Source: a virus
DNA: 64,000 nucleotides
Virus record (IMG/VR): IMGVR_UViG_3300045256_000058
Location: 82,348 to 146,347 of that record
Direction: 5' to 3' (one strand)
In this document: piece by piece, positions 2,162-24,302 of the stretch
Numbering within the stretch: position 1 is the first letter of the stretch
Layout: every line of letters starts with the position of its first letter
Program-made: the position numbers and the translations under genes
The notes under the pieces: model-generated
The model's database searches: none
Seen by the model: only the letters and a program-made list of their open reading frames with translations
What the model was told of the DNA's origin: nothing

Positions 2162-3148
2162 TTACATGACTTCTTCAGTCTCTCTTTCTAACTCGTATAC
2201 TACTGGAGCATCTAATACTGCACTCACTTCAATAGTCTCAGGTTCAGATGAAGGTTTAAGGTCACTAGCATTTAGTTTTCTACCTAGCTTTGCTTCGAGT
2301 CTCTTGATAGCTGCTTGTCTTTCTTGAGGAGTTTTGAATTTATGAGACTTAGTTTCTATTTGGAATAGTTCCATATCTTCTTTTGGAGCATTCTCATAGA
2401 TTTGTCTTTGTAGCTTATAGATGTTACTAGCTACAGTAATTGCTTCTTTTACTTCATTTAGAAAGATTGGAGTACCTGTTTTGTTATTTACCATATTCAT
2501 GTACTCTTTTGTTTCTTCTGATAGATAGTTAGGATTATCTAAGTCTTCAGAGGCATCTAGTACCTCTCCAAACTTATGTTCGATATATCTATCTAGAACT
2601 ACACCTAATTTATTACAAGCATTTACAGCAGCTATTTCAGCTTGATAATTCTCTTGTACATATAAACCTAGCTCTTGTCCTATATTTCTTTCATTTACTC
2701 TAGCTAAATAAGCTTTACGAAGATGTTGCCATTTATCTTTATGTACTTTATCTCTTAGTGTGGTAAAGTTTACTTCAAACTTCTCTGCAAATTCTTTGTA
2801 AGTATAATCTTCAGATGCAAATGTACCATCTTCTAACTGAATTCTTTTTCCAAGTACCCAATGTTTACGTAACTCTGTCCAGTTATACTTCTTAGTTGTT
2901 TTACCATAGATATGCTTTAGACGAGGATTTTGTTCAGGAGGTAGAGGTACTTCACTAGAACTCTCATAGTTCATGATTGTATTGAGTTCTTTAATTTCTT
3001 CTAACTCTTTTGCTACTCTTGAAGTATCCGATAGCTTTACTTTCTTTAGAGTAGTATATGGTCTAGCATCTGAATCTTTCTTACGAGGATTTGGTCTAGC
3101 AATTAATGAATACGTTGTACCTGATTCATTGAATATTTTCTTAGGCAT
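2162..3148 (-). CDS. Probable terminase small subunit (HTH)
   Basis: 'KYNWTELRKHW...TYKEFAEKFEVNFTTLRDKVHKDKW' is the HTH pattern of TerS proteins; lies upstream of terL on the same strand. Confidence 0.6.
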   Translation of the reverse strand: MPKKIFNESGTTYSLIARPNPRKKDSDARPYTTLKKVKLSDTSRVAKELEEIKELNTIMNYESSSEVPLPPEQNPRLKHIYGKTTKKYNWTELRKHWVLGKRIQLEDGTFASEDYTYKEFAEKFEVNFTTLRDKVHKDKWQHLRKAYLARVNERNIGQELGLYVQENYQAEIAAVNACNKLGVVLDRYIEHKFGEVLDASEDLDNPNYLSEETKEYMNMVNNKTGTPIFLNEVKEAITVASNIYKLQRQIYENAPKEDMELFQIETKSHKFKTPQERQAAIKRLEAKLGRKLNASDLKPSSEPETIEVSAVLDAPVVYELERETEEVM

Positions 3149-3551
3149 GAGTTTGCAAGTTGTATAGTGTTTCGTTAGATATAAGAGTGTGTGCAGAAGT
3201 AAATATTAGATTGGGTATAGATATTTGACTATATGCACTTGGTAAATTGCGATGCTTAAAGTTGTAGGAGAAGTAGATTATTTCTAACTTAGTTGCATCT
3301 GGATGAAATAGAAAATAGGATTGTATTTGACCTATTGCATGTTTTATAGAGTTAAATTCCTTTACTTCTATTAGTCTTTTTTCATTTCTAAATGTTCTCT
3401 CACTGTTTGAGTAGAGTGGTTCATCTTTATGTATGATTAGGTCAATTAGTCCTACAGGAGTCTTTACTTCTCTAGCAACAGAATACCCTTGGTTAGAAAA
3501 ATATGCTGCTAGAGCTTTTTGAACTGTAGCTTCGGATAGTTTCGTCTTCAT
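3141..3551 (-). CDS. PD-(D/E)XK nuclease-family protein
   Basis: 'REVKTPVGLIDL...IEVKE...HAIGQIQSY' gives the D...ExK...Q..Y signature. Confidence 0.75.
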   Translation of the reverse strand: MKTKLSEATVQKALAAYFSNQGYSVAREVKTPVGLIDLIIHKDEPLYSNSERTFRNEKRLIEVKEFNSIKHAIGQIQSYFLFHPDATKLEIIYFSYNFKHRNLPSAYSQISIPNLIFTSAHTLISNETLYNLQTHA

Positions 3552-3974: not shown

Positions 3975-4285
3975 TAATCTCTTCGTTTACAGTTTTGTGA
4001 CTGCGTTTACTACAATTAGTTTAGCATTTCGTGCATGAAAAATATGCCGGGATTTCTGTGCTTTTTTTATTCTCTTTATGATTTAGGTGAGTTTGAATTA
4101 TTGGGTTGGAAGCAGCCCCTTAAAAAACATCCTATCACACTCTGAAACCCCTGTCAAATAAGGCTTTCAGCCATTTTACCTCTCAATCCATAAGCTACAC
4201 TTATAGTACAGATGTACGGTTAGGTATAGAGTATTCTCTATAGTAACTATAGAAAACTTTACATAGTAAATAGGTATAAATACTC

Positions 4286-4327
4286 TATACAATCCTGTTG
4301 AAAACTGCGATACTGTTTACAGGTTGG
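4286..4327 (+). promoter_or_regulatory. sigma70-type promoter P1 with GTTTACAGGTTGG downstream motif
   Basis: TATACA-17bp-GATACT with extended TGn, followed by GTTTACAGGTTGG. Confidence 0.5.
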
Positions 4328-4465
4328 ATAAGAGATAAGGAGGTTAAAGGATAAAACACTATGAACAATTAAATATTCTTATGGGATTGCAAGGGCTATT
4401 GCTCTTGACTTTCACAGGATAACTGTGCTTAAAATCCCGGCTAGAAAATTGGGTATTTATGCCTA

Positions 4466-4508
4466 TTGCGTTTTCTATCCGTATCCCCTAAGATGTTTAC
4501 AAGGTTGG
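4466..4508 (+). promoter_or_regulatory. sigma70-type promoter P2 with GTTTACAAGGTTGG downstream motif
   Basis: TTGCGT-17bp-TAAGAT followed by GTTTACAAGGTTGG. Confidence 0.7.
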
Positions 4509-4597
4509 TTATGAGACAACCGACAATCAAACGATAGATTCCAAGCTATCACCCTATCAAAATTTATTCGCAGAGTCAAACTGCAAAAGGAGTACCT

Positions 4598-5080
4598 ATG
4601 GCTAAAGCCAGAAGTGTAGCTCTCCGTAAGACCTTCGCCTATGGTGTATTGGCTGTTACAAAGTCAACCGTATGGAAAGAGAAAGGTAATCCCGAAGCGG
4701 GTACGGAGGTAGTCTACTCAGTTCGCTTTAAGGTAAAGTCAGAAGTCTTAGAGCGTCTTAAAGCTCAAGGTGTGAAAAATCCTCTCAAGGATAATCCATT
4801 CCTTTTGATGCAAGATGGGGCTTCTTTCAAAAGGTTCTTTTCTAATGGTAGTGAGAAAATTACTACCTATATAAAGACTACTGACTATGCTAAAGCTGAG
4901 GAAGTTTTTAAGCGTGTAGTCTCTAGTATGAGTAGGGGTGTTAAGCCTACTAAAAAAGCTGTGATTCAAGATGTGCTGCCATCTGGTATGCGTATTGTTG
5001 AGCGTTCACAGTCTGAGTTTAGTAAAGCTTTGCTTTCTCCCTCCACACCATCTAAAAAACTATCCTTTAGCGTGAGATAA
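4598..5080 (+). CDS. Hypothetical basic early protein
   Basis: 160 aa, strong AAGGAG RBS, first gene after P1/P2. Confidence 0.8.
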   Translation: MAKARSVALRKTFAYGVLAVTKSTVWKEKGNPEAGTEVVYSVRFKVKSEVLERLKAQGVKNPLKDNPFLLMQDGASFKRFFSNGSEKITTYIKTTDYAKAEEVFKRVVSSMSRGVKPTKKAVIQDVLPSGMRIVERSQSEFSKALLSPSTPSKKLSFSVR

Positions 5081-5083
5081 GCC

Positions 5084-5344
5084 ATGAAGTATGCTGTCTT
5101 AAAAACTGGCAATCACTATGCCCGTATGAATTACGCATATCAACCATGCTGTAATACGGGTTTAGTAGAGATTGATGAGTCTATCCCTACGGATGACTAT
5201 GGCAATCCCATTACTGTTGCAGACTATAAGCTAGTTGATGATTTAGCTCTAGCTACAGTTTTCCCTAAGAAGTTGGCTAAACGTTTAGTTAGGGCTGATT
5301 TATTTCTTGAGGTTATGACTGTTCAGCGTGTAATGTTCGTTTAG
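5084..5344 (+). CDS. Hypothetical protein
   Basis: 86-aa ORF directly after the previous gene. Confidence 0.7.
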   Translation: MKYAVLKTGNHYARMNYAYQPCCNTGLVEIDESIPTDDYGNPITVADYKLVDDLALATVFPKKLAKRLVRADLFLEVMTVQRVMFV

Positions 5345-5357
5345 GTATTTCTTCTTA

Positions 5358-5399
5358 TTGACTTCTGCCCATATTGGCTGTATTGTGTTTATAGGTTGG
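5358..5399 (+). promoter_or_regulatory. sigma70-type promoter P3 driving the large non-coding region
   Basis: TTGACT-17bp-TATTGT followed by GTTTATAGGTTGG. Confidence 0.7.
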
Positions 5400-7353
5400 T
5401 TTTCTAACCTGTATTCCATGCTCTAGAGTTCGACTCTCTAGTGGGCACTGGGCTTTACGATGTACTTCGTTTATGCCCTATTAATAGCCTTGCTGTGAGG
5501 TTAAACACAGTGACATACTCTCCTGACAGAGAGGATTGGGCGTTCATAGCGCAAATTTACACTGCTACGGTAGCGGTATTGCTATCTACAGAGTGTTCTA
5601 CAGTGCTTTCAATGTGCTGTAACATTAAATCGGGCTTAATATACCCGTCAAATGTTGACAGTTTGCGATAGCTGTATGATTCACTCGCTTTTGTAGCTAA
5701 ATGAACCGTAGTTTCTATGTGTAATATTTGCCGTATCTTATAACGATAGGATTGAATGCTGTGGTTGGTAGTGGTCTATATGACTAAGTAGCTAACGTGT
5801 TCCTGATGGCATATCACGGGGTATGAATAGGGGTGAGTTACTATGAACCGTAAACTACAAATCTCGATAGCGAGCTAATCGTAACATTCGGTTAGTATAT
5901 GCTTTCATCTGGCGATAGGTGCTAGTGTCCCCATAGGGGTGCTAGTATTCAATAAGCTCGGTAGTACCATGAGGGAACGGGTGTGGAGTGCTGTTAGCCT
6001 AACAGTGCATTGATGCGTCCTAGTATGCTTGGGAATCCTAATGCTCAGACTTTATCCGGGTAGGTGCGGAATGAGTTGCTTCTAAGGATGACTGTATAGA
6101 AAGCTGAGTCTGTAAATGTGAGCTAGAGAGGTTGCGGCTAGGGGTAGAGCTTTATGCTACTACTTTCTACCGACTAAGTGTGCCTGCTTGAAACGGTCTT
6201 AATAAAACCGTCAAAGCGGATAACGGATGTATATCCTAGCTTAGTTATGGGGACTGTAGTGTGTATAAAGTATATGCTGTTAGCCTAGAAGGTGTAGTGA
6301 GACTGGGAACTGATTGAAAGGGTTTGTATGATTCCCTTCCCCATTGGGATGATTCTTATTTGAGTAGGCAGTTGCATCTTTACAGTTTGGACAGTTGGTA
6401 AGTATCGTGTAGCGGAATACACTAGACAATACCCGTATATACAAATATTACTTCCCGTCATAGTACGGGCTTTTCGGGGTACGTCAGTCACTATCCTAGT
6501 CTATGCAATGGAGAATGCGGCAATACAAGCCTTTCCTCGATTCACTATCATAGCCTATACTTACACCAAAGCGTCCCTAAATGTAAAGATAAATTGTATC
6601 CCCGGTATTCCCATATAAACAATATCGTGTTACCGCTTCCTAATGCACAATGATGCTGTGGGGGCTGTTTTGTGCTGTCTGGAAGTATTGCACGGTATTG
6701 GGGATAAGGTAGACTCTACTACTCTTCACTATGAAGAAAAGTAGGCTCTATGGAAGGGCAGTAAGTAAGTATCTAGCTATATGTCCTCTCTTTGGACATG
6801 GCTCCCTACATAAGCGTAGTATAAGGATTATCTCAAGCATAATTCTTCGACTTACCTATGGCTATGGGTTCGAGAATAAGTGTGAAGCGAAGCTAACAAG
6901 GAGTACGGCTATTTACGGAAAGCTGCGTCTGTCATTGCGATAGGCTGCAAACTGACCATAGAGACAAAATGAATCGGAACGCTGAGTGTGTAGTGTTCTA
7001 TTGAGGTATTGCATTCTAGTTCATGTTACTCCTGACTAGCGTGTAAGTTCCATATCGGGTGATGGCTGTCTCAGTAATTATAAATGCGCGAAGTAACATT
7101 CCAATGCGCTATGGAGGGAGGTAGGGTAATGAGAGACAGTCATGGGAGTTCATTATACAGATAGTCCCTCTCTTCCAAAAGGGGCTTCTGTTATCTCTTA
7201 AGTAATCCCAGTGAGAGAGTATATAGTATGAGTTAGCAATAACTCTAGCTAGTTAGAAATAGGTTAATAGCTTGTTTCTACCTAGTGAAAGATACTGTGT
7301 ACTCTCAATATTCTGGTTACGCTTACCTTCTGGTGCAAGTCCAGATAGAGGTA
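5391..7353 (+). ncRNA. Candidate very large structured non-coding RNA (or cluster of RNAs)
   Basis: About 2 kb with no credible CDS in an otherwise gene-dense genome. Many G-U-containing helices, e.g. 5921-5946 (11 bp), 6597-6609/6694-6706 (13 bp), 7062-7072/7133-7143 (11 bp). Has its own promoter. Confidence 0.65.
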
Positions 7354-7431
7354 TGGGTATCGTACCCTATAGAGTCTAGGCTATTACGGCTTAGGCTCAA
7401 TTTGTCATGCAAACTTATTGAGGTCAGTCTC

Positions 7432-10400
7432 ATGTCTCTTTGGCTTGTTGCTCCTACTTCTCTAAATGGAATCTTTGCTCACAAGCAATCCGTTTGGAAG
7501 GAAGACATCTACGAAATTGTAGAAGGAACAATAGAGGATGATGTTACTTTTCTATTGTTCATGGATGGTAAGCCCTATTGTGTGGGTACTGACCTTGATG
7601 AATTAAAAGACTATGCTCTAAACGGCTAGTCTAATTAGTCGAGTAATAGAGATTTATAACCTCTATCACTACTATAAGTAATCAATACAGGATGCTGGTT
7701 GTAGCTACAAGATTTCGTATGCTCCTAGCTCCTAATTTGTGTTGACTGTAGTGTGTTAGTTATGTTCTCTGTTGCTCTCTTCTGTATGACTGTTCACCTT
7801 ATCTAGTCATGCTAGGAGGGGTAATGACTTGTGATGCCTGCTCGTAGTCCACCTTATTTTCTAACCATCATGGTTGTTCAATTTTACAACGGACACAAAA
7901 ACATTCATCTTAATGTTGAACTGGATAGGCTGCATCCTGACTGTAATGTAAGAGCTATTGGAAGAGTGGGTAGAGATAAGTATTCTGAGCTTCCTACTTT
8001 TGAATCCGATAATTTTACTAGCTGTCTGGTAAAAGCTTCTCAATGGTGTGCATTGAATGGATTCTTTCCGGTAGAAAACGGCAAAGTAGTTGAATACGTC
8101 TAGCTAAGGAGAAACATGGAAGGTAAACCCATCGAACTAAATATCTCAAATGAGTTTCCTGCTAACGGGGAAATTGTTATTCGAGTTCGATACGTTGCTA
8201 AAGATGCAAGACGAAAAGCAATGTTGTCTGTGTACGTTAGTGAGAACTGGTTAGCTGAGTGGGGATTGCATTCTACCGCTCGTTTCATGAATCAACGGCT
8301 CCAAAAAGATTGGGGTAATCCTCCTCTAGAGGTAGAAGCCTCCAATAAAGGCTATCGAGTAGCTAGGCAAGCTGTGTTTGGTGATAAAGATAACTCTCCT
8401 TGGTCACACATTCAAATTGCGGCTTTTAGAGAGATGGTAGATATACTCTCTGAGTTTCAAGCTCATACTGCCTATCTAGATGCCCTTCGCAGTTCGGTTC
8501 CTGATGAAATGTTCTTTACTCTGGTGAAGTAATGCGTGTAATCGGTCAAGAATCAAATTCAGCTTTTCAACAAGAAGCTGAACCACTATTAGCGGCAAAC
8601 GGGATTTTAATTGTCCCTACTGTGTTTGATATGTCTAGCACTGGGTCTAAAGGTGTAGCAATTCGAGTCTACATTACGAATCACAGTCTGGATATAATTA
8701 GTCAACGTCAGAGTCTTTCTGAGCCTCCCATTTTGCCTTTACTTGGTTATGTGTCTTCTAGCTGGGGTGAAGCATCTCATGTATTTCCAGAGAGTAGAAA
8801 CATTGCTTTCGAGAAGGATTTTGCTCCTGATGTTCCTGGTCATTTCATTGACCGTTGGATAAAGAATTTCTCTACTCAAGTCTTAGAAGAGTGGAGTTTC
8901 ATTCTTTCTCATGTGCAAAAGAACACATCGGTTACGGTCACTCCTTCTGAGTTCCAAAATGGATTCTTTGGGATTACCTCTGCTTAGTTCGTTCATTACG
9001 TCCACATCATCAAGGTACAAAATTATGACTTCTGCTACACTTGTACGTCCTGCCTATACTCCTGTTCTCAAAGCCGACTTAGAACAAGGGGAAGAAAAGA
9101 TTTCCAAGCTCGTTGATAAGTGGAAAGCTCTAAACCCCGGCAAAAGTGTGAATCTCCGAATTACCTTTGCAATGTTTAACTCTGCTGAGAGCCTTACTCA
9201 AAAGTATGAGGCTGCAAAAACTCGGCTTCAACATTGGTATCAGGATGCAATCATTACTGAGCGTCAAATGAAAGAAGCGCTATCTGAAATCGGTAAACTG
9301 TATCGAACATTCATCGGTATCTCTGCTAACTACGCAAATAAGCGTCAGTACAACGGCAAAACCGAAAACATTGTTTGGATGGAATTCTAGTTTTTGTGTG
9401 GGTTACTTCTCCTTACCCTAATGGGGTTGCTCTTAGCGAGTGACCCCTTTTTTCTTAAGAGAAAGTTCCTTTTTTCATGCAAACCTTTACCTTTTTCTAC
9501 CATCATGGCAAGCACTGGAATTACTGACCTTGAAACCCTTCATTCTTTGAAAGAGGAGTATTTTCCTCACGACACCCCTACTCTTCCTGATTCCGTTATC
9601 TATGCGGAAGATGCTGAACTGCTAATGCGTCTTTCAACACACGACCCTGTGCATGGTTATCGGATTGTAAATGAATGGAAGCCCGTAGCAGCAGATGAAA
9701 CCTACTGTCATGTGCAGGAAGTGAATTTCAAGATGTTCACTGTAACCCCTCGCTTAGATACTTCTGACCGTGCTGCAAGCCACTATCTGACTCCACAAGA
9801 GCGGGATATGTTGTTCCGTACTTGGTTATATCGTGGTTTTTCTCCTGCTGTGTCCATTCATCCGTATCTTCAGCCTGCACAGGATATTCTGTAATGTCAG
9901 AATCAATACCATCTCACTCTATGAAATATCTCCCTCTTTTTCTGGTGTTTTTAACATCTGTAACCATTAGCACGTTCGAGCTATTGGCTATGGGTATTTC
10001 AGGATGGCTACTATATGCTCTCCCATTATGGAAAGCCGCAATTGCAGTAGCTCTAGGGTTGTTATCAACCTACGTCATGATTGATGCTTTCTCCAAGCTT
10101 CAGATTCAGCTCAACAAACACATTACTCGGAAATTACAGAATGATTCTTGACTTCATTGCTGTTGGGTTGGTGGGGATGGTCTTACGTCCCCTATTTGAC
10201 CGTTATGTAGTCAATCCTATTGCTGCATGGATTACGATTTGTCAAATGAATGATTGTGGAGACTAAATGCACTATCACGTTCTTGAGTCTGAAGGTAAGT
10301 TCATTGCACACCCTATGATTCGTGTAATTCACGGTGTGCTGACTTCTGATATTCAAAAGGCACAGGTCTACCCGTTAGAAACTGATGCCATTACCTCAAT

Positions 10401-10994
10401 CGCCTATCTTCAGGAACACTACCCAGAATTAACTGGTAAGCCCTTAGTTCCGAGAGCTATCTCTATTGGATTGGAGGAATGAAATACAACCTTCATCTAT
10501 ACAAACTCGTAGTTGCAAACTACAGCACACAGACTTCTAGAGAGACTTTAATTACCGATAAAGCAGAGTATGACAGAGAGGTACTGTCTTACTTGTCTTT
10601 GCCGTATTCGGTAAGAGTGTCTTTACAGAAGCTTAATCATCTTGCTTTATGGCAAACGATTAAGTCGGTTACGGTCAATCACTTTGATGAAACTTTCTAA
10701 CTTCGGAGGAATCCAATGAGTCTATTTTCTGGTGGATTGCGTACTGCCTTGAAACCAATCAAGGTTCGTATTCTATCCAACGGTTCCAACTTTGCTTTAC
10801 AGCAACAACAAACGTTCTTCGGGTTTCCCTACTGGTCAGTGATGACCCGTTGGGATATTCACCCAATTACCGGACAAGCTTCCAAGCTTCCGGCTAAGTT
10901 CGATACGATTACAGATGCTCAAGAACATCTTGCTGCTCTAAAAGCATCTCGTCAGTCACTTGTCTGGGATGTAACCGATACGGTTGAAATCTAG
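7432..10994 (+). other. Run of about 11 small hypothetical early genes (7432-7629, 7870-8103, 8116-8532, 8532-8987, 9025-9390, 9505-9894, 9894-10151, 10141-10266, 10267-10482, 10479-10700, 10716-10994)
   Basis: Co-directional ORFs, many with GGAG RBS or overlapping stop/start codons; no recognisable domains. Confidence 0.7.
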
Positions 10995-11000
10995 TCAATC

Positions 11001-11037
11001 GGGGTAGTTAGTGTTTGCTGGCTACCCTTTGCTTTTT
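11001..11037 (+). terminator. Intrinsic terminator
   Basis: GGGGTAGTTAG/CTGGCTACCCT hairpin followed by a T-rich tail. Confidence 0.65.
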
Positions 11038-11063
11038 CTATCCACCATTATAAGGAAACAATC

Positions 11064-12119
11064 ATGGCAACTACAACTGCGAAAAAGAAGACTACTTCTC
11101 CTACGAAGACTACTAAATCAACTGCAACTAAAGCTAAGGTGACTAAACCTGCTGAAACTGAAGCACCCCGTGAGCCTGGTAAGCTCCAAGTAAGACTGGA
11201 TGCGCTCACTGCTGATGTAATCAAAGCAATGGAGCAAGGCACTTTTGGTAGCTGGGTAAAGAAATGGTCAGAATCACCATTCTCTATCGGTACAAATTTT
11301 TCTACTCAACATCAGTACACAGGGTCTAATGCCCTGATTACTGCCTGGTACTCTATGGCTCAGTCTAAGCCTAATATTTGGGGTACGATGAATGCTGGTT
11401 ATAGCATGGGATGGAAATTGCGTAAAGGTAGCCAACAAATTCCTTTGCTGCGTCCCAAACAAGTTGTAATCTCAGCAGAAGAATCAAGTACAGGAAAAGA
11501 AGTTCGGTTTACACGGTTTAGTTTATTCGGTGTTTCTAACCTGCTCGACTTCGATGCCAATCCAAATGCAAAGATGTCTCCAGTAGAGTTTCTACAGGAG
11601 TTAGAAAAGGCTACAAAGAGACTCTCTGAAAAACAGAGAATTGCTCATGCTGAGAAGTTTCTAAATGCCGCAATTAAGCAATCAGGTGTCAAGATGCTCG
11701 GCAATGGTAATCCTTCCTATGCTCCTAAGCTTGATGGAATTTGGATGCCTGACTTCAAGACCTTTCATGCTCCTGAGTATTATTACAGCACTCTTGGGCA
11801 CGAACTCATTCACTCAACTGGTGCGGAATCCCGACTAGCCCGTAAGGGAATTACAGAATTTGACCACTTTGGTTCTCCTCAATATGCTCAGGAAGAACTG
11901 ATTGCTGAGTTGGGTAGCTTATTTCTAATGGCGTACCTCGGTCTTGAGTACGATTTAATGCACAAGACTTCATATCTCGCAAGTTGGCTAAACGGATTGA
12001 AGGAAAACCCCCAATATCTGTGGAAGTCAGCAGCAAAAGCTCAAGCGGCTTACAAGTTTGTTCGTGAAATGGGTGGCGACCCTATTCCTGAAAACAAGAA
12101 ACAGGAAAACGAAAAATAG
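11064..12119 (+). CDS. ardC: ArdC-family ssDNA-binding antirestriction protein (DUF1738 + zincin-like domain)
   Basis: 'YTGSNAL', 'GWKLRKGS', 'PSYAPKLDGIWMPD..F...EYYYSTLGHELIHSTG..SRLAR', 'YAQEELIAELGS', 'SYLASWL'. Confidence 0.9.
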   Translation: MATTTAKKKTTSPTKTTKSTATKAKVTKPAETEAPREPGKLQVRLDALTADVIKAMEQGTFGSWVKKWSESPFSIGTNFSTQHQYTGSNALITAWYSMAQSKPNIWGTMNAGYSMGWKLRKGSQQIPLLRPKQVVISAEESSTGKEVRFTRFSLFGVSNLLDFDANPNAKMSPVEFLQELEKATKRLSEKQRIAHAEKFLNAAIKQSGVKMLGNGNPSYAPKLDGIWMPDFKTFHAPEYYYSTLGHELIHSTGAESRLARKGITEFDHFGSPQYAQEELIAELGSLFLMAYLGLEYDLMHKTSYLASWLNGLKENPQYLWKSAAKAQAAYKFVREMGGDPIPENKKQENEK

Positions 12120-12139
12120 ATTTCCTTGGTGGACTAGAT

Positions 12140-12176
12140 GAGAGTGGGTTTTTCTCCTTTTCCCACTCTCTTTTTC
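12140..12176 (+). terminator. Intrinsic terminator
   Basis: GAGAGTGGG/CCCACTCTC hairpin followed by a T run. Confidence 0.75.
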
Positions 12177-12455
12177 TTAACTATGAAACCTTTAACTAAT
12201 CAAAAGCCTTATGTCCTAGTTTGGATACTAGATAACGGTTACATTTACGACATAAAAGTTTCTCGTAGATTTAATTAAAACTACTTATTGGCATCCTCAA
12301 AGACTCTTCATTCCCTTTGGAGGTATGCACTATTACAGTTTTGAAGACTTTGATAGAAAGTATCACAAAGAGTATCCTGCTTTGATTCATGGCATAAAAG
12401 CGGCACTTACTAATGGGATTACCAGAATACAGTTTGATTATCCTGTAGTTGCACT

Positions 12456-12881
12456 ATGAAGTTTTACGAGTTTATTCTAAAAATAAATAACGAGTTAGTT
12501 TTTCCTGCAATACAAAACAAGATAAACATAGACCACTTAGTTGATGACTTTAGATTTGAGTCCGATGCAATTTGGGCACTATATCACTTTATTCCTAGAA
12601 TTATAAAGAGAGTAGTGAACCCAAAATTCAATCTCTCGTATCATCTAAACGGTGAAAGTAACTACTCTAGATGGTTATTCTATCTCGACCATGAGAATTT
12701 CAGTGTTCTAACTCCTGAAACTATGAAAGAGATTAGTTTGCCTAGTATTTATAATACCCCTGAAAAAAGAGAGTGGTTCTACAAGTTGGTAAACGGTACT
12801 CTTAGTGAGACATACTATTTACGAGAGTTTGAAAGAATGAAAGCATATCTCAAGGATAGGTATCATGTCGAGATTTACTAA
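12456..12881 (+). CDS. Hypothetical protein (paralog of 12865-13317)
   Basis: Shares 'H..PRI.+++.P.F' and 'G..S.TYY.R.F..M..Y' with the next ORF. Confidence 0.75.
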   Translation: MKFYEFILKINNELVFPAIQNKINIDHLVDDFRFESDAIWALYHFIPRIIKRVVNPKFNLSYHLNGESNYSRWLFYLDHENFSVLTPETMKEISLPSIYNTPEKREWFYKLVNGTLSETYYLREFERMKAYLKDRYHVEIY

Positions 12882-13317
12882 ACATCTTTTACATTTCATT
12901 GAAAGGTCTAGTCCTATTGTTTTAGTAGGAACTAAAGATGTAACCGATTTTGTTGACTTTTACGATGTTGCTTTTGACGAAACACATTTAGTGTTTCATT
13001 TACATCCTCGAATTATGAGAAAGATAGACCCCTCATTCACAGTGGCAAAGTATGTTAGTCGCTATGAACGTTGGCTAGAAGCATTTGGAAACTATTTTCT
13101 AACAAATTACTTCACTCCTCATCGTATTGAGGAAACGGGATTTGCTATCCCATCTCTTAGGTCGAATATTTACGAAGAATTGTTTGGTCAAATGTCTGAT
13201 ACATACTATCGTCGAAGATTTGACGATATGTTTAAGTACGTCTGCGAGGAATTCGATTGTGCAACTCAGTTGTCAGAAAGTGAGGGAGAGCAATCCCTTA
13301 TCTTGTTTGGTAGGTAA
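12865..13317 (+). CDS. Hypothetical protein (paralog of 12456-12881)
   Basis: 'HLHPRIMRKIDPSF' and 'GQMSDTYYRRRFDDMFKYV'. Confidence 0.75.
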   Translation: MSRFTKHLLHFIERSSPIVLVGTKDVTDFVDFYDVAFDETHLVFHLHPRIMRKIDPSFTVAKYVSRYERWLEAFGNYFLTNYFTPHRIEETGFAIPSLRSNIYEELFGQMSDTYYRRRFDDMFKYVCEEFDCATQLSESEGEQSLILFGR

Positions 13318-13527
13318 GTTAATTTTAGGAATCAAACACAATTTACTTGACTTATATGGTGATGAAAGTACGGTTGTCGATTTCTATGAACTCATCGTAA
13401 AGGATATTCTTTCGGGAATCGTAGAAACGGGTTACATTCTGTCCGGTACTTTCTATAGTAAGGTTTATACCGATAAATCTGAGATAGAAAGTTTGTATCC
13501 AGATTCAAAAATTGTGGAGAAATCATA

Positions 13528-14049
13528 ATGCCAGTTTTGCATCAACTCGCAACTACCTTCCTACAGACAGACGTTTGCACACTGAAAGCACTTCCTAACC
13601 GGGATGTTTTTGTCCTTATCGATGCTCTTAATGATTTGCTTCTAGAACACGATTTGTTCGATGCCGCATTTGAGTGTGTAACTCAAGAGCCATACAACTC
13701 AATCGAAGAGTTAGCGGCAGATTTCGAGGTTACTCGCGTTCTAAAGGTCAAGTATCGTGAAGCAACACTAATTCCCGCAAATGTTTATACATTCTTTCGG
13801 GGTGTTCATGACCTTATTCATCACTACAAGATGGGTTTCACGTTTGAACCTACCGATGAATTTCGTGCTGGAATGCACTTAGCAAGCTTACTTTGGTCGA
13901 AGTCGGAACTAGCTGCGTCGTATGCGTTCTGCGATGTAGCTGGATTCAATGCGGTCTACGAGTTAGACCCTTCTCTCTGGGAACAATTGCATCCTAAATT
14001 GGATGTAAGACTTCTCAATCCGTACACTTGGCAACCCTTAGCGCATTAA
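13528..14049 (+). CDS. Hypothetical protein
   Basis: 173-aa ORF with GGAG RBS. Confidence 0.75.
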   Translation: MPVLHQLATTFLQTDVCTLKALPNRDVFVLIDALNDLLLEHDLFDAAFECVTQEPYNSIEELAADFEVTRVLKVKYREATLIPANVYTFFRGVHDLIHHYKMGFTFEPTDEFRAGMHLASLLWSKSELAASYAFCDVAGFNAVYELDPSLWEQLHPKLDVRLLNPYTWQPLAH

Positions 14050-14056
14050 TAACAAA

Positions 14057-14488
14057 ATGTCTCTTACGCCTTCATCTCAATGGTCGGATAGAACACATGA
14101 TTTTCTGATGTTTGATACAGAGCATGAGCCTGTAGCAGTAACAGAAGTCACTCTTCATGATAATACCCCAGCAACTCTGTTTTCGCTGGCAAATCATCAG
14201 GAGGAACACTTTGAAATGCTTCTAGTGGTCAGTGACCATGAGCCTATTACTCTTGATACTCTTACTTGTCCGATTAAGACAGTGTATCGTCACTTTATTT
14301 ACGGAGAAGTGTTACCGCAATTGACTTTAACCACTATTGAACAAATTGCGGGTATCTTTCCTAAGTATGTAGAAGCTAATTTCCCTGCTTCTTGGAATCT
14401 TGACCGAGAAGAATCAGTTCATGAACATCTGGGTAAAGCAATGCTTGCCAAACTCACTGGCAACTTTGTTCCGATTCATCTCATTTAG
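14057..14488 (+). CDS. Hypothetical protein
   Basis: 143-aa ORF in the same operon. Confidence 0.75.
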   Translation: MSLTPSSQWSDRTHDFLMFDTEHEPVAVTEVTLHDNTPATLFSLANHQEEHFEMLLVVSDHEPITLDTLTCPIKTVYRHFIYGEVLPQLTLTTIEQIAGIFPKYVEANFPASWNLDREESVHEHLGKAMLAKLTGNFVPIHLI

Positions 14489-14536
14489 TTTCGAGTTCAC
14501 TTTTTCTAACTAATCAATTTACGGAGATTCAAATCA

Positions 14537-15715
14537 ATGGTATCTATTCCTTCTCTTCGCAATCGTCTTGCTGGCAGATTCGTTAACTCGCAAGAAGTGG
14601 CTCAAACTATTTCGTTATCGATGGTTTCTAACATCCCCCTGATTCTTAAGGGTAAAGGTGGTTATGGTAAAACCGAAAGCATTTTGGAAGCGATGAAAGT
14701 CGTTGACGGTTGGAAATGGGGTATGCTTGAAGCTACTCCAGAAACAACTGCTTCTGATTTTCTGGGTGGTGCAGTTGCTAAGACTGAGAAATTCGAGAAG
14801 TACGATATTACTCGCGCTTCTTACGATGTTCAACGTTCTTTGCTAACGAAAGATGCGTTCTTCATCGAGGAAATGATGGATGCTTCGTTCAATGCGCTGT
14901 CTGCTCTCAAGGCGATTATCACCAATAAAGGTGCTACCGTCAATGATGAGTGGGTTCCTTCTAATCTGAAATGGCTTGTGGCTGCAACCAACGTTGACCC
15001 TGTTACGTTCTTGCAATCGCTTCCTCCTACTCACCAGAATTCTTACGATGCTCTGCTGCAACGATTTTTGGTGGTCAATCAGGAATGGAAAACTCATACT
15101 GCTAACGATTACAAGCAGTTGATTACTTTCGTTCCTACTGACAGCGAGGATAACTTCAGCCTCGACGATTTGGAAGCTTATCGTCAACTTCGTGAGCAAG
15201 TCATCGTTACGAAAGATGTTGCTGAGTTAATTTCTGAGCTTGCTGCTCGTTCTACCGAGCAAGGTTCGGTTGTCTCTCCACGTTCGTTCATGTGGGCACT
15301 GAATCTCATCAAATCCAGTGCGGTTCTCAACAATCGTGACCGTACTCATCAGGATGACATTCATGTTGTGCAATATGTTACCTCTTTTGACCCCCTGCTT
15401 ATGGATGGTCTTAAAGAAGAGATTGAACGCAAGCGCAAACTGTCGATTGCAATGGACAAACTGGCAGAATACGAAGGCAAACTGTCTCAACTCGAAGAAC
15501 ACCTTCGCAAAAATCCGAAGTCTCTGCATCCTCACTTCCTTGCTCTATCTGTTGCTCAATCTATCGATGCAATGCTCGACAATTTGGGCAAAGAATTGCA
15601 CTATGACGACAGCATGAGTCAGCAAGTCTCGAAGTTCCGTGACAAGGCTTACAATCTGCGTGAAACTTCCGAGATTGAAGCCAAGAAGCACTTCAACGCT
15701 TATCAGCTTATCTAG
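14537..15715 (+). CDS. MoxR/RavA-like AAA+ ATPase
   Basis: Walker A GKGGYGKT, Walker B 'FFIEEM', sensor 'VAATN', arginine finger 'DALLQRF', 'VSPRS'. Confidence 0.85.
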   Translation: MVSIPSLRNRLAGRFVNSQEVAQTISLSMVSNIPLILKGKGGYGKTESILEAMKVVDGWKWGMLEATPETTASDFLGGAVAKTEKFEKYDITRASYDVQRSLLTKDAFFIEEMMDASFNALSALKAIITNKGATVNDEWVPSNLKWLVAATNVDPVTFLQSLPPTHQNSYDALLQRFLVVNQEWKTHTANDYKQLITFVPTDSEDNFSLDDLEAYRQLREQVIVTKDVAELISELAARSTEQGSVVSPRSFMWALNLIKSSAVLNNRDRTHQDDIHVVQYVTSFDPLLMDGLKEEIERKRKLSIAMDKLAEYEGKLSQLEEHLRKNPKSLHPHFLALSVAQSIDAMLDNLGKELHYDDSMSQQVSKFRDKAYNLRETSEIEAKKHFNAYQLI

Positions 15716-15769
15716 TTCAGTAATGGGGGTGCTTAATGTGCCCCCTGCTCTCTTTCTGAGGTTTTTCCA

Positions 15770-17164
15770 ATGGTTCAAAGAACTAAGAATGATACATATC
15801 TTCTCACCGAACGTGAGGTAGTCGAGTTTGGTAAACGTCTGAAGAAAAAGCTGAATTACAGCCCTTCTCTCGCGCTTGATATTGCAAATCTGATTGAAGG
15901 TGGTGAGATTCTTCCCACTCCTGACATCAAATCTCAGATTCGTAAGCAATTAAGCAAACAATTAACTTTGAAAGCCGATGCTTCCGGTCAATATCGTGAT
16001 GTGAAGGGTGAGAAGGTTCCCTCTTATGCAGATGCAATGGATTCGTATGTTGATGAACACTTCAAAGTTCAGAAAAATACGGTAGAATTTCTGCAAGAAC
16101 TGAAATCTGGCGGAGATTTGAACAAAGTTCCTGGTAGAACACCGTTAGAAAAGACGTTTACTCTTCTACGGATGCTCGATAAGAACGATGGCAAATCAAG
16201 CTCTCCCATGCCTACTGGTGGTGGAGGTGGTGGCGAATTCATGCCTACTTTCTCTGGTGGTAATAGTCGAGGTTCTGCTTCTGCACGTAATCTTCATGAC
16301 CAACTTGAGTTTCTAGACAAAATTACTCCTGAGAGTAAGGAACTCATGTCTACTCTGGAGAATGATATGTATGACGATGGCACAGAAGAGGATGAAGATA
16401 CTCAGAATGCCATTAGTATTGCCAGCAATGTTTATCGTGAAATTCTCAAGTCTGCATCGATGCTTGACAGAGTTACGGCTATTCACACTAAGCCGACTTC
16501 TCGATTAATTCCAGATGTAACTGGCGACCGTATCGAACATAGAGCAATTCGTGGCTTTGAAGAGACTGGCAAAATTCATGCTAAAGAGTTCATTCGTCCT
16601 CGTCCAGTAATGCTCTCTCGAATTATTGAGCATCAAACTCAGGTCAAACAAATCTATCGACAAGAACAGTCAATGCCGATTATTGCCCTTCTTATTGATG
16701 ATTCTGGTTCTATGAACGAGAATTACAAACGAGAAAAAGCACTCGGTATTCTTCACAATATGCTTGAGCGTGTAATGAAGAGTGAGACTTGGTTATTATT
16801 CTCTTTCTTTGAGAAACAAGCTCACAAATTCTACACTTTTGAAGCTGGCGATGTCGAAGCTGTCAAGAAGTTCTATCGAGGTGCTGTCAAACATAAATTT
16901 GATACTGGTGGAACTTACGTTGGTGGTGCTGCTCAACGGGCACTTGAAGAACTTGACAAAATCTACGACAAATATACGGAGATTGACTTCTCTCGTCGTG
17001 ACCGTCACTTGATTCTTGTAAATGATGGTCAAGATGATGCGTCTAATCTTACTCTTCAGATGTTAAATGGTGCAAAGCTTCATGCTTTTGTACTTGATTC
17101 CGATAATGAAGAGTTACGAAGATTGGCAATTCAGTCAGGTGGTTCGTATCGGAGCAAATTGTAA
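15770..17164 (+). CDS. vWA-domain protein (ViaA/CoxE-like partner of the MoxR ATPase)
   Basis: MIDAS 'LLIDDSGSM', 'TGGT', 'ILVNDGQD'; adjacent to the AAA+ gene. Confidence 0.85.
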   Translation: MVQRTKNDTYLLTEREVVEFGKRLKKKLNYSPSLALDIANLIEGGEILPTPDIKSQIRKQLSKQLTLKADASGQYRDVKGEKVPSYADAMDSYVDEHFKVQKNTVEFLQELKSGGDLNKVPGRTPLEKTFTLLRMLDKNDGKSSSPMPTGGGGGGEFMPTFSGGNSRGSASARNLHDQLEFLDKITPESKELMSTLENDMYDDGTEEDEDTQNAISIASNVYREILKSASMLDRVTAIHTKPTSRLIPDVTGDRIEHRAIRGFEETGKIHAKEFIRPRPVMLSRIIEHQTQVKQIYRQEQSMPIIALLIDDSGSMNENYKREKALGILHNMLERVMKSETWLLFSFFEKQAHKFYTFEAGDVEAVKKFYRGAVKHKFDTGGTYVGGAAQRALEELDKIYDKYTEIDFSRRDRHLILVNDGQDDASNLTLQMLNGAKLHAFVLDSDNEELRRLAIQSGGSYRSKL

Positions 17165-17971
17165 TGACTCTTGTTGACAGACAGAGAATCCTGACAGTAT
17201 TAGAGAGATTTCTGTATCATCATCCAGAGATACAGAGTCTCCCTCTGTCAGAAAAAATTTCCAAGTTGGTTGAGTTCTTTCCTGCAATGGTGGTAAATGT
17301 CCGAGATTATACCTCGGAGGAGTATTCAAAAATCAAGTATTTACCATTGTACTGCGGAAATGAGCAAGGTGGTTGGGTTGCAGAGGTTTACTCACTTACA
17401 TAAGGAGGCTCTATGACTACGGTAAAGAGAGGCAATTACACTATAACTACTCGTAATTCGGGTACTACATGGTTCGTAAAATGTCTTTTGAATGCTAAGG
17501 TTCGTATCTCCGAACGAGTAAAACAAATGTACGGTTGTTTCAACACAGAGGAAGAGGATGATGAACTTGTCTTCGGCTTTGATGACGGTTCGTGACATTG
17601 TTTCTTCTCTAGCTACAGGGAAGAAACAAAATTGTAGGCATACTGCTTACGTTGACCTATTTGATGGTCATTTACTATACATTTCAACCTTTTCTATTAG
17701 TGATTCTTTCCATGAAACAGCTATTTTTCTAGTTGTAAATGGTAAGGTCACTACTTGGGAAGAAATGTATCGAGAGGATTATTGCAATGCGGATGACGCA
17801 ACAAAGCGACATGAAATAATCGTAGGGCAACTCTCAAACTTAGCTCGTTGGCTAAGACAGAGAAGGGAGCAAGGGGCTATACTACCTACTCCACTTCTTA
17901 CTGCTGTAGAGACAGAGATAAAAATTTTACTCCCTCTGACTCGAAGCAGACATGAATGTAATGAACAGTAA
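17164..17971 (+). other. Three small hypothetical genes (17164-17403, 17413-17595, ~17582-17971)
   Basis: Closely packed co-directional ORFs. Confidence 0.6.
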
Positions 17972-18208
17972 ATAAGAAGCCTGTACAGATTACCGACTGC
18001 TGTATGGGTTAAGTATGAGTCGGAATTATATATTATATGAACGCTTGCTTTCCTCTGTGAGTAGTCAAAGGTAGATTACTCATATTGCTTTTTCTATCCG
18101 TTCGATAAAGGTAATCGAATGATTCAGTTAGAAAAAGTAACAAGTGTATTACCGCTCGATAGAAGTAAAGAGTAGTGTATCGCTGTCAACCATCATCTCG
18201 GAGTCTTT

Positions 18209-18796
18209 ATGACCACGCCAAATCTTTCACTTCTTGTTCACATCTACGACAATCACACCACAGTTCAAACTGCTAAATCTGGCGGAGCTTTCGGTAAACT
18301 CAACACTCTTCCGGTCGGTGCAAATCAACTCTTTCCTTCTGCTCCTGTAGTAGAAGATAACTCAGTCTATTTGATTGAGGGACACGATTTCACAAGTGAC
18401 GCAATTTACTTCGTTGCATACAACGGTGCGAATCGTGAGCTTGCGGTTAGCTGGAAAACTAACACTGAAGCTGTTTACGTCTACGAAAATATCCCTCTGG
18501 AACTATTGACCCGATTTCTTGCTGCTAAAAGCAAGGGTTCATTTGTTTCCAGTCAAATTGTAGGCAAACAAAAGCTGAGTCGAATTACGAATCCTGCTGA
18601 GTTTACTCGCAACAAGCTATTTGAAGCGATTGGAACCAAGACAAAAGCACCCACTTACGTTCGTGAGCCTCGCAATGCTTCAAATCCTGCCTCATCGAAA
18701 GCTAACCCAGGTAACAAGCAAGTTTCGGATGCCCAGCTAGAGCAAATGGCTCAGTATATCTTTGAAACTCTTGGTAGTTTGCCTAAGTTTCGGTAG
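18209..18796 (+). CDS. KTSC-domain protein
   Basis: 'SDAIYFVAYNGANRELAVSW...VYVYENIPLELLTRFLAAKSKGSFVSSQI' matches the KTSC pattern. Confidence 0.8.
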   Translation: MTTPNLSLLVHIYDNHTTVQTAKSGGAFGKLNTLPVGANQLFPSAPVVEDNSVYLIEGHDFTSDAIYFVAYNGANRELAVSWKTNTEAVYVYENIPLELLTRFLAAKSKGSFVSSQIVGKQKLSRITNPAEFTRNKLFEAIGTKTKAPTYVREPRNASNPASSKANPGNKQVSDAQLEQMAQYIFETLGSLPKFR

Positions 18797-18872
18797 AATG
18801 GATATATAAGTTGAACTTATGTTCTCATACTCGATACTTTAAGTCGAGTTATGTCCCCTATTCGGTACTCAA

Positions 18873-19223
18873 ATGTTAGCTACAAAAATTGGCATTCAAG
18901 TTACTCCTCCTTCTGAGAAAGATTCGGTGGATGTAAACATCAATCTGCACAGCACATTACCAGTCGGAACAAGATTGTATCTCGCCTCTGAAATGCGAAA
19001 GCTATTGGAGCATCGTGACAGTGACCGAGTAATTGCATCTTTTGTTTCCGATACAGAGTATGCAAAGCTCTTTCTATCTCTCATGTCTTCTCGTAAAGAG
19101 GCTGAAGACTTCATTCTTAAACTAATGTCCTACAAGTCAAACGTTGATTATGCGAGTCTCAATGCGGTATCAAGCGAGAACGGGCAAACTTCAGAAACCC
19201 AATCGAAAAACAAGTGGGTCTAA
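18873..19223 (+). CDS. Hypothetical protein
   Basis: 116-aa ORF. Confidence 0.6.
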   Translation: MLATKIGIQVTPPSEKDSVDVNINLHSTLPVGTRLYLASEMRKLLEHRDSDRVIASFVSDTEYAKLFLSLMSSRKEAEDFILKLMSYKSNVDYASLNAVSSENGQTSETQSKNKWV

Positions 19224-19300
19224 GGGCAGGTTACGAGCAGTAAAGCAACGAACACAAGCGACTAGGCGAATACTACAACAATTAAGCAGAGAATGGGAAA

Positions 19301-19537
19301 ATGGTTCAACTGATTAACTGGTTCATGTTAGTTACGGGTGTTTCTACCATCTTTCTAGGTGGTATGAGCATTTACGAAAACTCAATCTACACAAACTCAC
19401 CACTACCAAGTGTAGGTATGGAGAGTAAGGTTCAGTCAGAAGCCTATAGTGATACAGGGAAAACAAGTGCAGCCGTTTTTCTAGGTTTATTCCTGCTTCG
19501 TTGGGGACTCATTGATATTCAAAGTGAAAGATACTAA
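19301..19537 (+). CDS. Small two-TM membrane protein
   Basis: Two hydrophobic segments; overlaps the start of the next gene. Confidence 0.6.
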   Translation: MVQLINWFMLVTGVSTIFLGGMSIYENSIYTNSPLPSVGMESKVQSEAYSDTGKTSAAVFLGLFLLRWGLIDIQSERY

Positions 19538-20283
19538 TGAGCATGGAAATTTATTTAACCGGAGGAGCAGTAAGAGACGCTCATATTTATGGTAATTTCA
19601 CTTCCCATAAAGATTGGGATTTTGTAATTATTGCTCCTTCCTTTGAGGACATGGTAGCGCAATTTGAAGCTTCTGGTGGAAAAGTTTACAAATTGCAACC
19701 AGAGTTCGGTAGATTACGTGGTTTCTGGAAAGGTTATAACGGGGATTTCATGGTAGGTCGAATAGACGGTTTCTACCCTGATGGTCGTCATCCCGAAACT
19801 ATTCAGATTGCGGAATCTATCGAACTAGATTTACAACGTAGGGATTTGGCTTTCAATGCAATGGCTGTTCCTGTTGACCCTGAAACTGGTGTTATTTACT
19901 GGAATGAAGTAATCGATTTGTTCGGAGGTCTTGACGACATTAGAAATAAAGTCATTCGTCCAGTGGGTAACATTATTCACCGTGTAACTGAAGATGCTTT
20001 ACGTTTAATGCGTTGGTATCGCTTTCAAGCTCAGTTACCAGGATTTACTCCTGATTTAATGACAGTTGGAATGATAGAAAGTGAAGCGGAGATGTTAGGT
20101 CATGCCCTTTCTAAAATTTCATCTGATAGAAGAAGAGGCGAATTGTATCTAATGTTTCAAGCAGATAGTATTCGCTCCATTCACATCCTATCGAGAATTC
20201 ATATTGCAATTCTAAATGCAATGTTTTCTGGTGGGATTAAGTTATCACCAACCAATCGGATTCTAAAGGAAAAACTACAATGA
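19537..20283 (+). CDS. cca: Class II tRNA nucleotidyltransferase (CCA-adding enzyme), minimal form
   Basis: 'GGAVRD...KDWD', 'DLQRRDLAFNAMA', 'DLFGGLDDI', 'EDALRLMR'. Confidence 0.9.
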   Translation: MSMEIYLTGGAVRDAHIYGNFTSHKDWDFVIIAPSFEDMVAQFEASGGKVYKLQPEFGRLRGFWKGYNGDFMVGRIDGFYPDGRHPETIQIAESIELDLQRRDLAFNAMAVPVDPETGVIYWNEVIDLFGGLDDIRNKVIRPVGNIIHRVTEDALRLMRWYRFQAQLPGFTPDLMTVGMIESEAEMLGHALSKISSDRRRGELYLMFQADSIRSIHILSRIHIAILNAMFSGGIKLSPTNRILKEKLQ

Positions 20284-23200: not shown

Positions 23201-24302
23201 ACCACTTGACAAGAGGGAATGAAATGTTTAGTATTAGGTTAGGTGATTTCAGGATAACGATTGAAAATGCAAAGCTTCAACCTGACCCCGGTACAGTACT
23301 CCGGTCAAAAGTACACAATCGATGCAGTCCCACTAGGCGCAAAGCGAAATGGCGGAAATCTGTCTCTCGTCTCGGCTCCAAAGGGGTTAGGAAATGGTGA
23401 GTACATTACTCTTGAAACATCGGGTACTGGAAGACCGAAAATCAGCAGAGCTAATTATGACTCAGATTTACCTGTGTCTTGGTTAGCTAAACTATCTGCA
23501 AAGAACAAACAGGCTCTAGGTAAAGGGATTATTTACATTCCTCGCATTGACTTTCATACCGTACAGATTCTTTCCTACGGGGTTGGTTACTATAATCCAA
23601 CTAAATCTGAAGGGTATTTAGAGTTATTGCTTCATGTAAAACCTTCTCCTGGTTATTCGATTCCAATCATTGTTGACGATGGTTGTCCTGTTTGTTATGA
23701 GAGCAATCGAAGAAATATTCGAGGATATGTATTCAGCACTGCGGAAGTTGCAATATTAGATTTCGAGACACTTTACGGACTTACTGATATTAGCTCTCTC
23801 GATACACCAAGCAACTCGTATATAAAGCTGAGTATTGATTCATTACCAGAGGTTCAAAATGCCGCGTAAAACAATGCGACCTTCTCAAGAGGAGATTTTA
23901 GAGCAACAACGTGCAGAGTACGCTCAATTTTATGCAATGCTTCCTTGTTCTATTATTCAATTAATGGGTGAAGCAGAAAGAGTTGGGATTTCAGCCGTTG
24001 TCCATAAGTACGAAAACGGTAAGTTAAGTGTAACTTTTGAATTCGCACAAGTTCAGTTTGAAGTTCCTTTATGGGATATGAGTTCAACAGTGGGTAATCA
24101 ACTTTCTATCGAGGGTGAAACTCATTGGTCACAACGGGACGCTGTACAAGCTGTAATCAATGCAATTGAAGATTACAAATATGAGCTAGAGCAAGAACAT
24201 CAACAAGAGAAACTCTATCACTCTGCTCTTTCCAAATTAACTCCCGAAGAAGCTCATATTCTTCAAGAAAGATTTATGAGACTTGGTAGATGCTTAGTGT
24301 AA
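20280..24302 (+). other. Run of hypothetical genes (20280-20486, 20483-20704, 20670-20966, 20963-21169, 21169-21321, 21353-21703, 21740-22099, 22250-22606, 22610-22792, 22797-23222, 23267-23869, 23859-24302)
   Basis: Closely packed + strand ORFs; no domains recognised. Confidence 0.7.

Follow-up and report, generated by a model that had tools for sequence, protein, structure and literature searches.

What does a virus keep in 2 kb of DNA without genes? The question is raised by positions 5345–7431 of the window, i.e., of the whole analysed stretch of 64,000 nt, which corresponds to bases 82348–146347 of IMG/VR record IMGVR_UViG_3300045256_000058 (146,347 bp, completeness rated 100%). The source virus is uncultured and cyanophage-like, with a genome of 146 kb, in which this gene-free stretch (2.1 kb) is the biggest gap without genes; the remaining gaps are at most 1 kb, and two of them contain tRNA genes. 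It heads a rightward arm of genes that is presumably the early region. The reading that we tentatively prefer is that the stretch may be a stand-alone, immediate-early, modular non-coding transcription unit on the + strand. The observations that carry it are gene-freeness, repeats of a promoter module, covariation between two hairpins, conservation of a G-rich box, and one distant relative with a matching position and layout.

Coding potential of the gene-free stretch

An earlier note on this DNA described 5345–7431 as having no credible coding sequence, and reading frames, codon usage, Pfam, protein search, and public gene callers all agree with this description. The longest stop-to-stop frame within the stretch comprises 87 codons. 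According to a codon-usage score trained on 61 long open reading frames (ORFs) of the same genome, the ORFs of at least 30 aa in the stretch range from −0.42 to +0.07, all inside the range of spurious ORFs found within long genes (−0.16 ± 0.22, vs +0.31 ± 0.08 for the long genes). Pfam has no match on the nine longest stop-to-stop frames, and the 76-aa ORF directly behind promoter P3 (see below) has no homolog among 5.8 billion proteins. In three other contigs that are 99.97–100% identical to the window, public gene callers leave the stretch empty, with the exception of one 70-aa call (contig L017). The phage is present in the samples JGI 3300045136 and 3300044960 and in run SRR35386017.

Two other ways of accounting for the empty frames were tried and rejected. 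Stop-codon recoding opens no frame when any one or two of TGA, TAG, and TAA are read through, and pseudogene remnants or decayed genes left no Pfam trace on the same nine frames.

That several very small protein genes (<40–76 aa) have been overlooked by gene finders is very improbable. Some short-ORF codon scores (−0.02 to +0.07) overlap the lower range of real small genes, and the score discriminates short genes poorly (+0.12 ± 0.18 for small + strand ORFs). A clear Shine–Dalgarno (SD) sequence is found in just ~30% of the long ORFs of this genome, i.e., it is not universal, and the G-rich box at 7113–7132 is itself an SD-like motif followed by ATG. However, the peptide that would follow the box has 11 aa here and 3 aa in the related contig L008, the 76-aa ORF is without homolog, and the ORFs cover a small part of the 2 kb.

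Promoter module, twin hairpins, and folded ends

The earlier note placed an early promoter, P3, at the start of the stretch, and P3 holds up as a copy of a three-copy module (P1, P2, and P3; Table 1). The copies align over ~60 nt, which include an upstream T(A/G)GGTAT, a −35-like hexamer, a −10-like hexamer, and GTTTAYA(A)GGTTGG. The last motif has 3 copies in 146 kb, all on the + strand and within 1.1 kb of each other (4315, 4495, and 5387), each abutting a −10-like hexamer. P1 is followed by a strong AAGGAGG and then by a 3-codon mini-ORF (ATG AAC AAT TAA at 4358). According to a promoter scan, sigma-70-like sites are not enriched in the region (9 observed vs 12.4 expected), and P3 is credible because the module is repeated, not because of site enrichment. 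The leading end of T7 has clustered host-type early promoters as well (A1, A2, and A3), with a non-coding lead of <1 kb and genes directly after it. Both phages open their early genes with a cluster of three similar host-type promoters that look strong and lie within ~1.1 kb; unlike in T7, the third promoter of the studied phage faces 2 kb without genes.

The + strand is likely the sense strand, as suggested by its composition, by the neighbouring genes, all of which are on +, and by G-U pairs that work only on +. Base counts in the stretch are 654 T, 549 A, 505 G, and 379 C, and the GC skew at 5500–6500 (+0.17 to +0.25) is above that of the flanks, in line with the earlier remark that the stretch is richer in G than its surroundings. 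The non-template strand accumulates G and T, so the excess of G over C and of T over A fits + strand transcription; by itself, this bias is no sign of structure.

The best sigma-70-like match in 4000–9000 is on the − strand, at 7077–7104 (TTGGAA, 16 nt, TATAAT; 10/12), and points leftward inside the stretch. Terminator-like hairpins are found on the same strand at 6226–6208 and 5647–5631, and an antisense transcript may arise from within the stretch.

Table 1. Positions of the predicted and observed features in and around the gene-free stretch (window coordinates)
Feature	Position	Strand	Description
Gene-free stretch, whole	5345–7431	+	Between the stop of an 86-aa ORF (5084–5344) and the ATG of a 65-aa ORF (7432–7629)
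Promoter module copies P1, P2, P3	4270–4345, 4450–4526, 5342–5417	+	
Promoter module P3	5342–5399	+	TAGGTATTT (5342–5350), −35 TTGACT (5358–5363), 17-nt spacer, −10 TATTGT (5381–5386), GTTTATAGGTTGG (5387–5399)
tRNA-like element	5366–5448	+	7-bp acceptor-like stem, T-arm with UUCGACU loop, 3' acceptor strand directly after; fold z −3.9
Hairpin, 9–10 bp, UUUU loop	5390–5413	+	At predicted transcript 5' end; from folds
Two-tier hairpin A	5621–5656	+	6-bp outer stem, 4/3-nt internal loop, 4-bp inner stem, loop CUUAAUAUA
Two-tier hairpin B	6184–6219	+	Geometry as hairpin A, loop CUUAAUAAA
11-bp helix, one G-U pair	7062–7072 with 7133–7143 (7062–7143)	+	Encloses the G-rich box; from folds
G-rich, SD-like box	7113–7132	+	GGAGGGAGGTAGGGTAATGA; 19/20 positions match the L008 gap (− strand, 1685–1666)
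Branched long hairpin	7215–7306	+	15-bp closing stem, two inner hairpins, one with a GCAA tetraloop (7236–7239)
Two terminal hairpins	7345–7370, 7372–7398	+	From folds

The two-tier hairpins A and B, situated 563 nt from each other, agree in geometry, in their internal loops, and in a 9-nt loop (CUUAAUAWA). Both partners are replaced in 5 of the 10 pairs, and pairing is nevertheless kept in all 20 cells (20/20), vs 25–64% in slid controls. The twin hairpins are paralogous, with compensatory pair changes, and their architecture has a frequency of 0.2% at random positions of the genome. With a covariance model built on the pair, no third copy is obtained in the 300 kb searched, and internal duplication outside the hairpin core is not significant. 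We read the pair as protein-binding sites or tertiary-contact loops. Signals present in two copies in phage early transcripts include the boxB hairpins of lambda nutL/nutR and the two-stem RNAs of HK022 putL/putR. The likeness lies in two related early-transcript hairpins with conserved loops and variable stems. In contrast to these systems, a single non-coding stretch contains both copies here, separated by 563 nt, and neither a boxA nor an N-like protein was identified. As for boxA, no + strand match to the cyanobacterial consensus GAACCTTGAAAA is seen in 5345–7431 at up to 2 mismatches, and the window-wide counts of this consensus equal chance.

Regarding structure in general, the earlier note described the stretch as packed with helices that need G-U pairs on the + strand. 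The helices that it quoted (5921–5946, 6597–6609 with 6694–6706, 7062–7072 with 7133–7143, and 5708–5714 with 5852–5858), as well as a repeat at 5701 and 5843 and every other quoted motif, are present at the coordinates given, as shown by the letters and by minimum free energy (MFE) folds. Hairpin density, however, is no higher than in shuffles or coding blocks. Simple + strand hairpins with stems of at least 5, 6, and 7 number 118, 42, and 19, respectively, vs 102, 43, and 17 in dinucleotide shuffles (z 1.6, −0.1, and 0.6) and 78–106, 32–53, and 11–22 in coding blocks of the same length. Hairpins on the − strand are half as numerous as on the + strand, and the shuffles show the same twofold difference, which is therefore due to G+T richness rather than to selected G-U helices. 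Thus, the quoted pairs do work only on +, but composition explains the asymmetry.

The comparison of folding energy with shuffled controls, which the earlier note had proposed, divides the stretch: both 500-nt ends beat the shuffles and the middle kilobase does not. The two 1-kb halves have MFE z values of −2.45 and −2.05, vs −1.35 and −0.06 for two coding controls (20 shuffles each). The outer pieces, 5391–5890 and 6891–7390, reach −3.1 and −3.9, respectively, each with an ensemble diversity below 19 of 20 shuffles. In comparison, the middle pieces (5891–6390 and 6391–6890) have z values of −1.3 and −1.2 and an ensemble diversity equal to shuffles. The idea of a single, densely paired RNA of ~2 kb gains no support over its whole length from this test, since structure above chance is confined to the two ends and the middle resembles shuffled or coding sequence.

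An ornate giant RNA of ~2 kb, functionally analogous to the large RNAs GOLLD and ROOL at about twice their size, as the earlier note had suggested, is also unlikely. It would agree with the lack of genes, the own promoter, the folded ends with their GNRA loop and T-loop-like hairpin, and the gap of similar size kept at the same position in L008. It would not agree with hairpin density at the level of shuffles, a middle 1 kb with MFE and ensemble diversity equal to shuffles, the lack of any Rfam match at E ≤ 10, covariation limited to the twin hairpins, and an alignment with L008 of 20 nt alone.

The strongest structure of the stretch is the 3' domain at 7215–7398. The interval 7140–7440 folds at z −6.4, with 0 of 100 shuffles as good, and the sliding-window fold z reaches −9.0 at 7201–7400. 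The last hairpin (7372–7398) has 11 bp followed by AAUUUGU, which makes it terminator-like with a weak U tract, and ends 33 nt before the next ATG. This end bears on the possibility that the early operon downstream has the stretch as its long 5' leader, with read-through from P3 (P1/P2) into the gene at 7432, nut/put-like twin hairpins, and 3' hairpins acting as an attenuator. We regard such a leader as rather unlikely. It is favoured by the weak U tract, by the lack of an evident promoter at 7398–7432, and by the location of both twin hairpin copies within one early transcript; moreover, cyanobacteria are not known to have Rho, so long untranslated leaders would be tolerated. On the other side, no boxA-like sequence turned up in the stretch at up to 2 mismatches to the consensus used, and 2 kb is very long for a leader. 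In L008, a canonical terminator precedes the gap and a U-tract structure closes it downstream, an arrangement suggestive of a separate unit.

If the stretch is instead a stand-alone non-coding unit, as we prefer, host RNA polymerase would start at P3, the third copy of the P1/P2 module, and the RNA would begin near 5392 with a protective 10-bp hairpin. It would stay untranslated for ~2.0 kb and end in, or be gated by, the folded 3' domain (7215–7398), with the terminator-like last hairpin just before the next early gene. Its functional modules would be the folded 5' ~500 nt with the twin hairpins, the G-rich SD-like box, and the 3' domain, and the middle ~1 kb would be a fast-evolving spacer. 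Early in infection, the RNA would most likely bind a host or phage factor and so serve as a platform or decoy; secondarily, it might control read-through into the early genes that follow. What we infer for the stretch is that it is transcribed, where its RNA begins and ends, what this RNA might bind, and what it does.

Function at the DNA level is quite improbable, whether in replication (as an origin), in packaging or injection (as a spacer), or in protein binding. The stretch is 5–7 kb from terL, the large terminase gene, and near the divergence of two transcription arms, and the unique 20-nt box, whose conservation goes along with that of the terminase, might serve as a recognition site. 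However, no iterons, tandem repeats, or DnaA-box cluster were found in the stretch, which is GC-richer than the genome, not AT-rich. The cumulative GC-skew minimum is situated at terL, ~5 kb away, and tracks gene direction, with no local skew switch. Moreover, the G-U pairs of the hairpins work on one strand only, as RNA. An origin, which the earlier note had named among the findings that would speak against a non-coding RNA (ncRNA), is thus not indicated.

Relatives and known RNA families

Among the relatives, the closest parallel is provided by L008, whose TerL is 56% identical to that of the studied phage. Its gene order agrees with that of the studied phage and consists of a divergent region, 2–3 small early genes, a ~1.8-kb gene-free gap, and more early genes. 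The L008 copy of the G-rich box is located inside this gap, on the early-gene strand and at a similar distance from the gap 3' end. When the L008 gap is dinucleotide-shuffled 300 times, the longest run with at most one mismatch has a mean of 13.8 nt and a maximum of 18, and 0 of 300 reach 20 nt. Beyond this 20-nt box, nothing aligns between the stretch and the L008 gap. L008 also has a 25-nt promoter-like element with TTGATAT twice inside, which occurs at 3140–3164 and 4969–4993 (− strand), one copy being at the gap start, right after a canonical terminator, and the other in the divergent region; this duplication mirrors P1–P3. The 3' end of the gap is a folded domain with a U tract (z −3.0). 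According to tblastx, the leftward genes are shared with relatives and the early genes are not, and no early protein of the studied phage is detectably similar to any of L008.

The nearest named relatives according to TerL are the Pseudanabaena phages Pam2 and PA-SR01 (39% identity), and metagenomic relatives reach 50–70%; the closest TerL homologs, P0002–P0012, are at 60–70% and come mostly from Logan assemblies. Both named phages have an unannotated, gene-free gap at the divergence point, i.e., at the head of the early arm: 1.8 kb in PA-SR01 (MT234670.1, 136922–137012 plus 1–1695) and 1.4 kb in Pam2 (ON014754.1, 135637–137027). The two gaps are patchily alike (81–92%, with indels), and the adjoining genes are 99% identical. 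Two further relatives have 1.2-kb divergent regions without genes. Rfam gives no match in the gaps of these relatives. As for the 20-nt box, it was not found in IMG/VR, phage records, Pam2, PA-SR01, or a Chroococcidiopsis metagenome-assembled genome (MAG), and in 401 cyanobacterial genomes it has 2-mismatch matches at best, no more than a reversed-pattern control.

A wider claim, which we consider doubtful, is that Pam2/PA-SR01-related cyanophages have a lineage-specific, separately promoted ncRNA gene of ~1.4–2 kb at the head of the early region, whose evolution is so fast that only the position, the layout, and a 20-nt G-rich core survive. No larger ncRNA encoded by a phage would then have been described than the studied copy, in which the twin hairpins and the box would be the functional sites.

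The comparison with L008 also bears on the suggestion that the stretch is a non-functional remnant, i.e., decayed early genes or a hypervariable spacer whose folds are due to chance or to leftover terminators. The probability of this is small. The stretch is an orphan sequence that is for the most part statistically like shuffled sequence, and the neighbouring early genes are orphans too. However, there is no pseudogene trace, the sequence of the stretch is identical in at least 4 assemblies, and a gap of similar size, the box, and an own promoter copy are kept at the same place in a relative with 56% TerL identity. In addition, phage genomes rarely keep 2 kb of junk.

Regarding known RNA families, Rfam 15 at gathering scores has no match in the stretch, GOLLD (RF01998) included. 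At E ≤ 10 with permissive filters, a search of 5200–7700 reveals no GOLLD, ROOL (RF03087), OLE, HEARO, raiA, or other large RNA, and group I/II introns, RNase P, tmRNA, and rRNA fragments have no Rfam model match in the stretch. The sole match at E ≤ 10 belongs to PYLIS_2 (E 0.83, 17 bits vs a cut-off of 36) and was rejected as noise. The Infernal search against Rfam (GOLLD, ROOL, OLE, group I/II introns, and RNase P) that was suggested along with the first reading of this DNA is thus negative even at E ≤ 10, and the likeness of the 3' part to the GOLLD 3' domain, suggested in that reading, finds no support from the covariance model, whose core is this universally conserved 3' domain.

GOLLD and ROOL resemble the stretch as large phage-borne non-coding loci in tRNA-rich phages and are usually placed beside tRNA genes or tRNA islands (PMC12286853). 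The nearest tRNA gene here is at 27217–27290, ~20 kb from the stretch, so this adjacency is lacking. In contrast to both families, the stretch has no model match, is off the tRNA island, is 2–3 times longer, and is mostly without structure signal. In Vibrio phage ICP1, an abundant non-coding transcript of ~800 nt has been shown by RNA-seq in an ORF-less space of ~1 kb (PMC7567579). As in ICP1, the stretch is an ORF-less locus of at least ~1 kb in a gene-dense lytic phage, belongs to no family, is read as a long ncRNA, and does not adjoin tRNA genes. Unlike the stretch, the ICP1 locus is beside the lysis cluster and less than half the size, whereas the stretch is at the head of the early region and its transcription is predicted from sequence. 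The stretch is outside all described RNA families, and long non-coding loci in ORF-less space of lytic phages have precedents in ICP1 and, loosely, in GOLLD and ROOL.

Sequence searches beyond Rfam give a similar picture. According to blastn against 50,697 phage records, and to blastn and nhmmer against eight related contigs and records, the stretch has no homolog, and 301 cyanobacterial genomes give chance-level matches only. It has no self-similarity elsewhere in its own genome. A flanking 160-aa protein has identical copies only, in IMG/VR and among 5.8 billion proteins, and searches of viral, metagenome, and genome collections, run with DNA polymerase and with a TerL profile, yield distant relatives only. 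A scan of IMG/VR for the promoter element gives single chance matches. One candidate, a 27-nt match (96%) of 6663–6689 to positions 1501–1527 of contig L026, was rejected. It falls within the 5' portion of an IS110-family transposase coding sequence from the Chroococcidiopsis MAG, has no protein-level extension, and is near chance once 301 genomes are counted. The same MAG also holds a contig of a related phage.

Several of the results weigh against a stand-alone non-coding unit. Diverged homologs of the stretch are absent from the phage records, the related contigs, and the 301 cyanobacterial genomes, and the box is common to just one relative (L008); Pam2, PA-SR01, the Chroococcidiopsis-MAG contig, and the other contigs lack it. 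Base composition accounts for the middle kilobase and for the overall hairpin density. The poor U tract, together with the lack of an evident promoter before the next gene, implies that the stretch may be just a leader. Codon statistics may be compatible with very short peptides, and, since clear SD sequences are scarce in this genome, their absence is weak evidence against coding.

If transcribed as one unit, the RNA would have about twice the size of GOLLD. It would also show that position and layout can be enough for long early ncRNAs to last in a phage lineage, even though almost the entire sequence turns over, and cases of this kind escape homology-based RNA discovery. If the stretch is just a leader or spacer, it calls for caution, as G+T-rich non-coding DNA yields many G-U helices from composition alone. 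Three pieces lend themselves to direct tests, namely the twin hairpins, the G-rich box conserved in L008, and the promoter module with its three copies, and proof of a discrete 2-kb RNA would greatly raise the value of the locus.

Neighbouring features

According to gene direction, the window divides left of the stretch: genes are on the − strand, towards terL, left of ~3975, and nearly all on the + strand from 4598 on. Two small ORFs (4598–5080 and 5084–5344) precede the stretch at the head of the rightward arm, and terL is immediately left of the window start. GC content is 38–43% over the first ~18 kb of this arm (window 4500–24000, genome 86–106 kb), vs 32–37% in most of the genome. Since the neighbouring 18 kb are equally GC-rich, the GC content of the gene-free stretch is typical of its surroundings.

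The tRNA-like element in Table 1 is unrecognised by ARAGORN and by the Rfam tRNA model at E ≤ 10. It overlaps P3 and would therefore be complete solely in read-through transcripts from P1 or P2. A role as a processing signal is conceivable, as is descent from a tRNA gene that has decayed.

As for terL, the large terminases of many relatives (TerL homologs P0007, P0008, P0009, P0011, P0016, P0020, P0027, P0030–P0034, and P0038) have 690–974 aa and contain intein, Hint, or LAGLIDADG domains. TerL of the studied phage, with 563 aa, has none of these domains.

The 17 tRNA genes of the window, as well as a short match to the tmRNA model, are all found at 27–57 kb. The latter, at 57150–57221, scores 62.8 bits with the Rfam tmRNA model over just 72 nt while spanning model positions 1–374, and is probably a tRNA-like domain or a tRNA rather than a full tmRNA.

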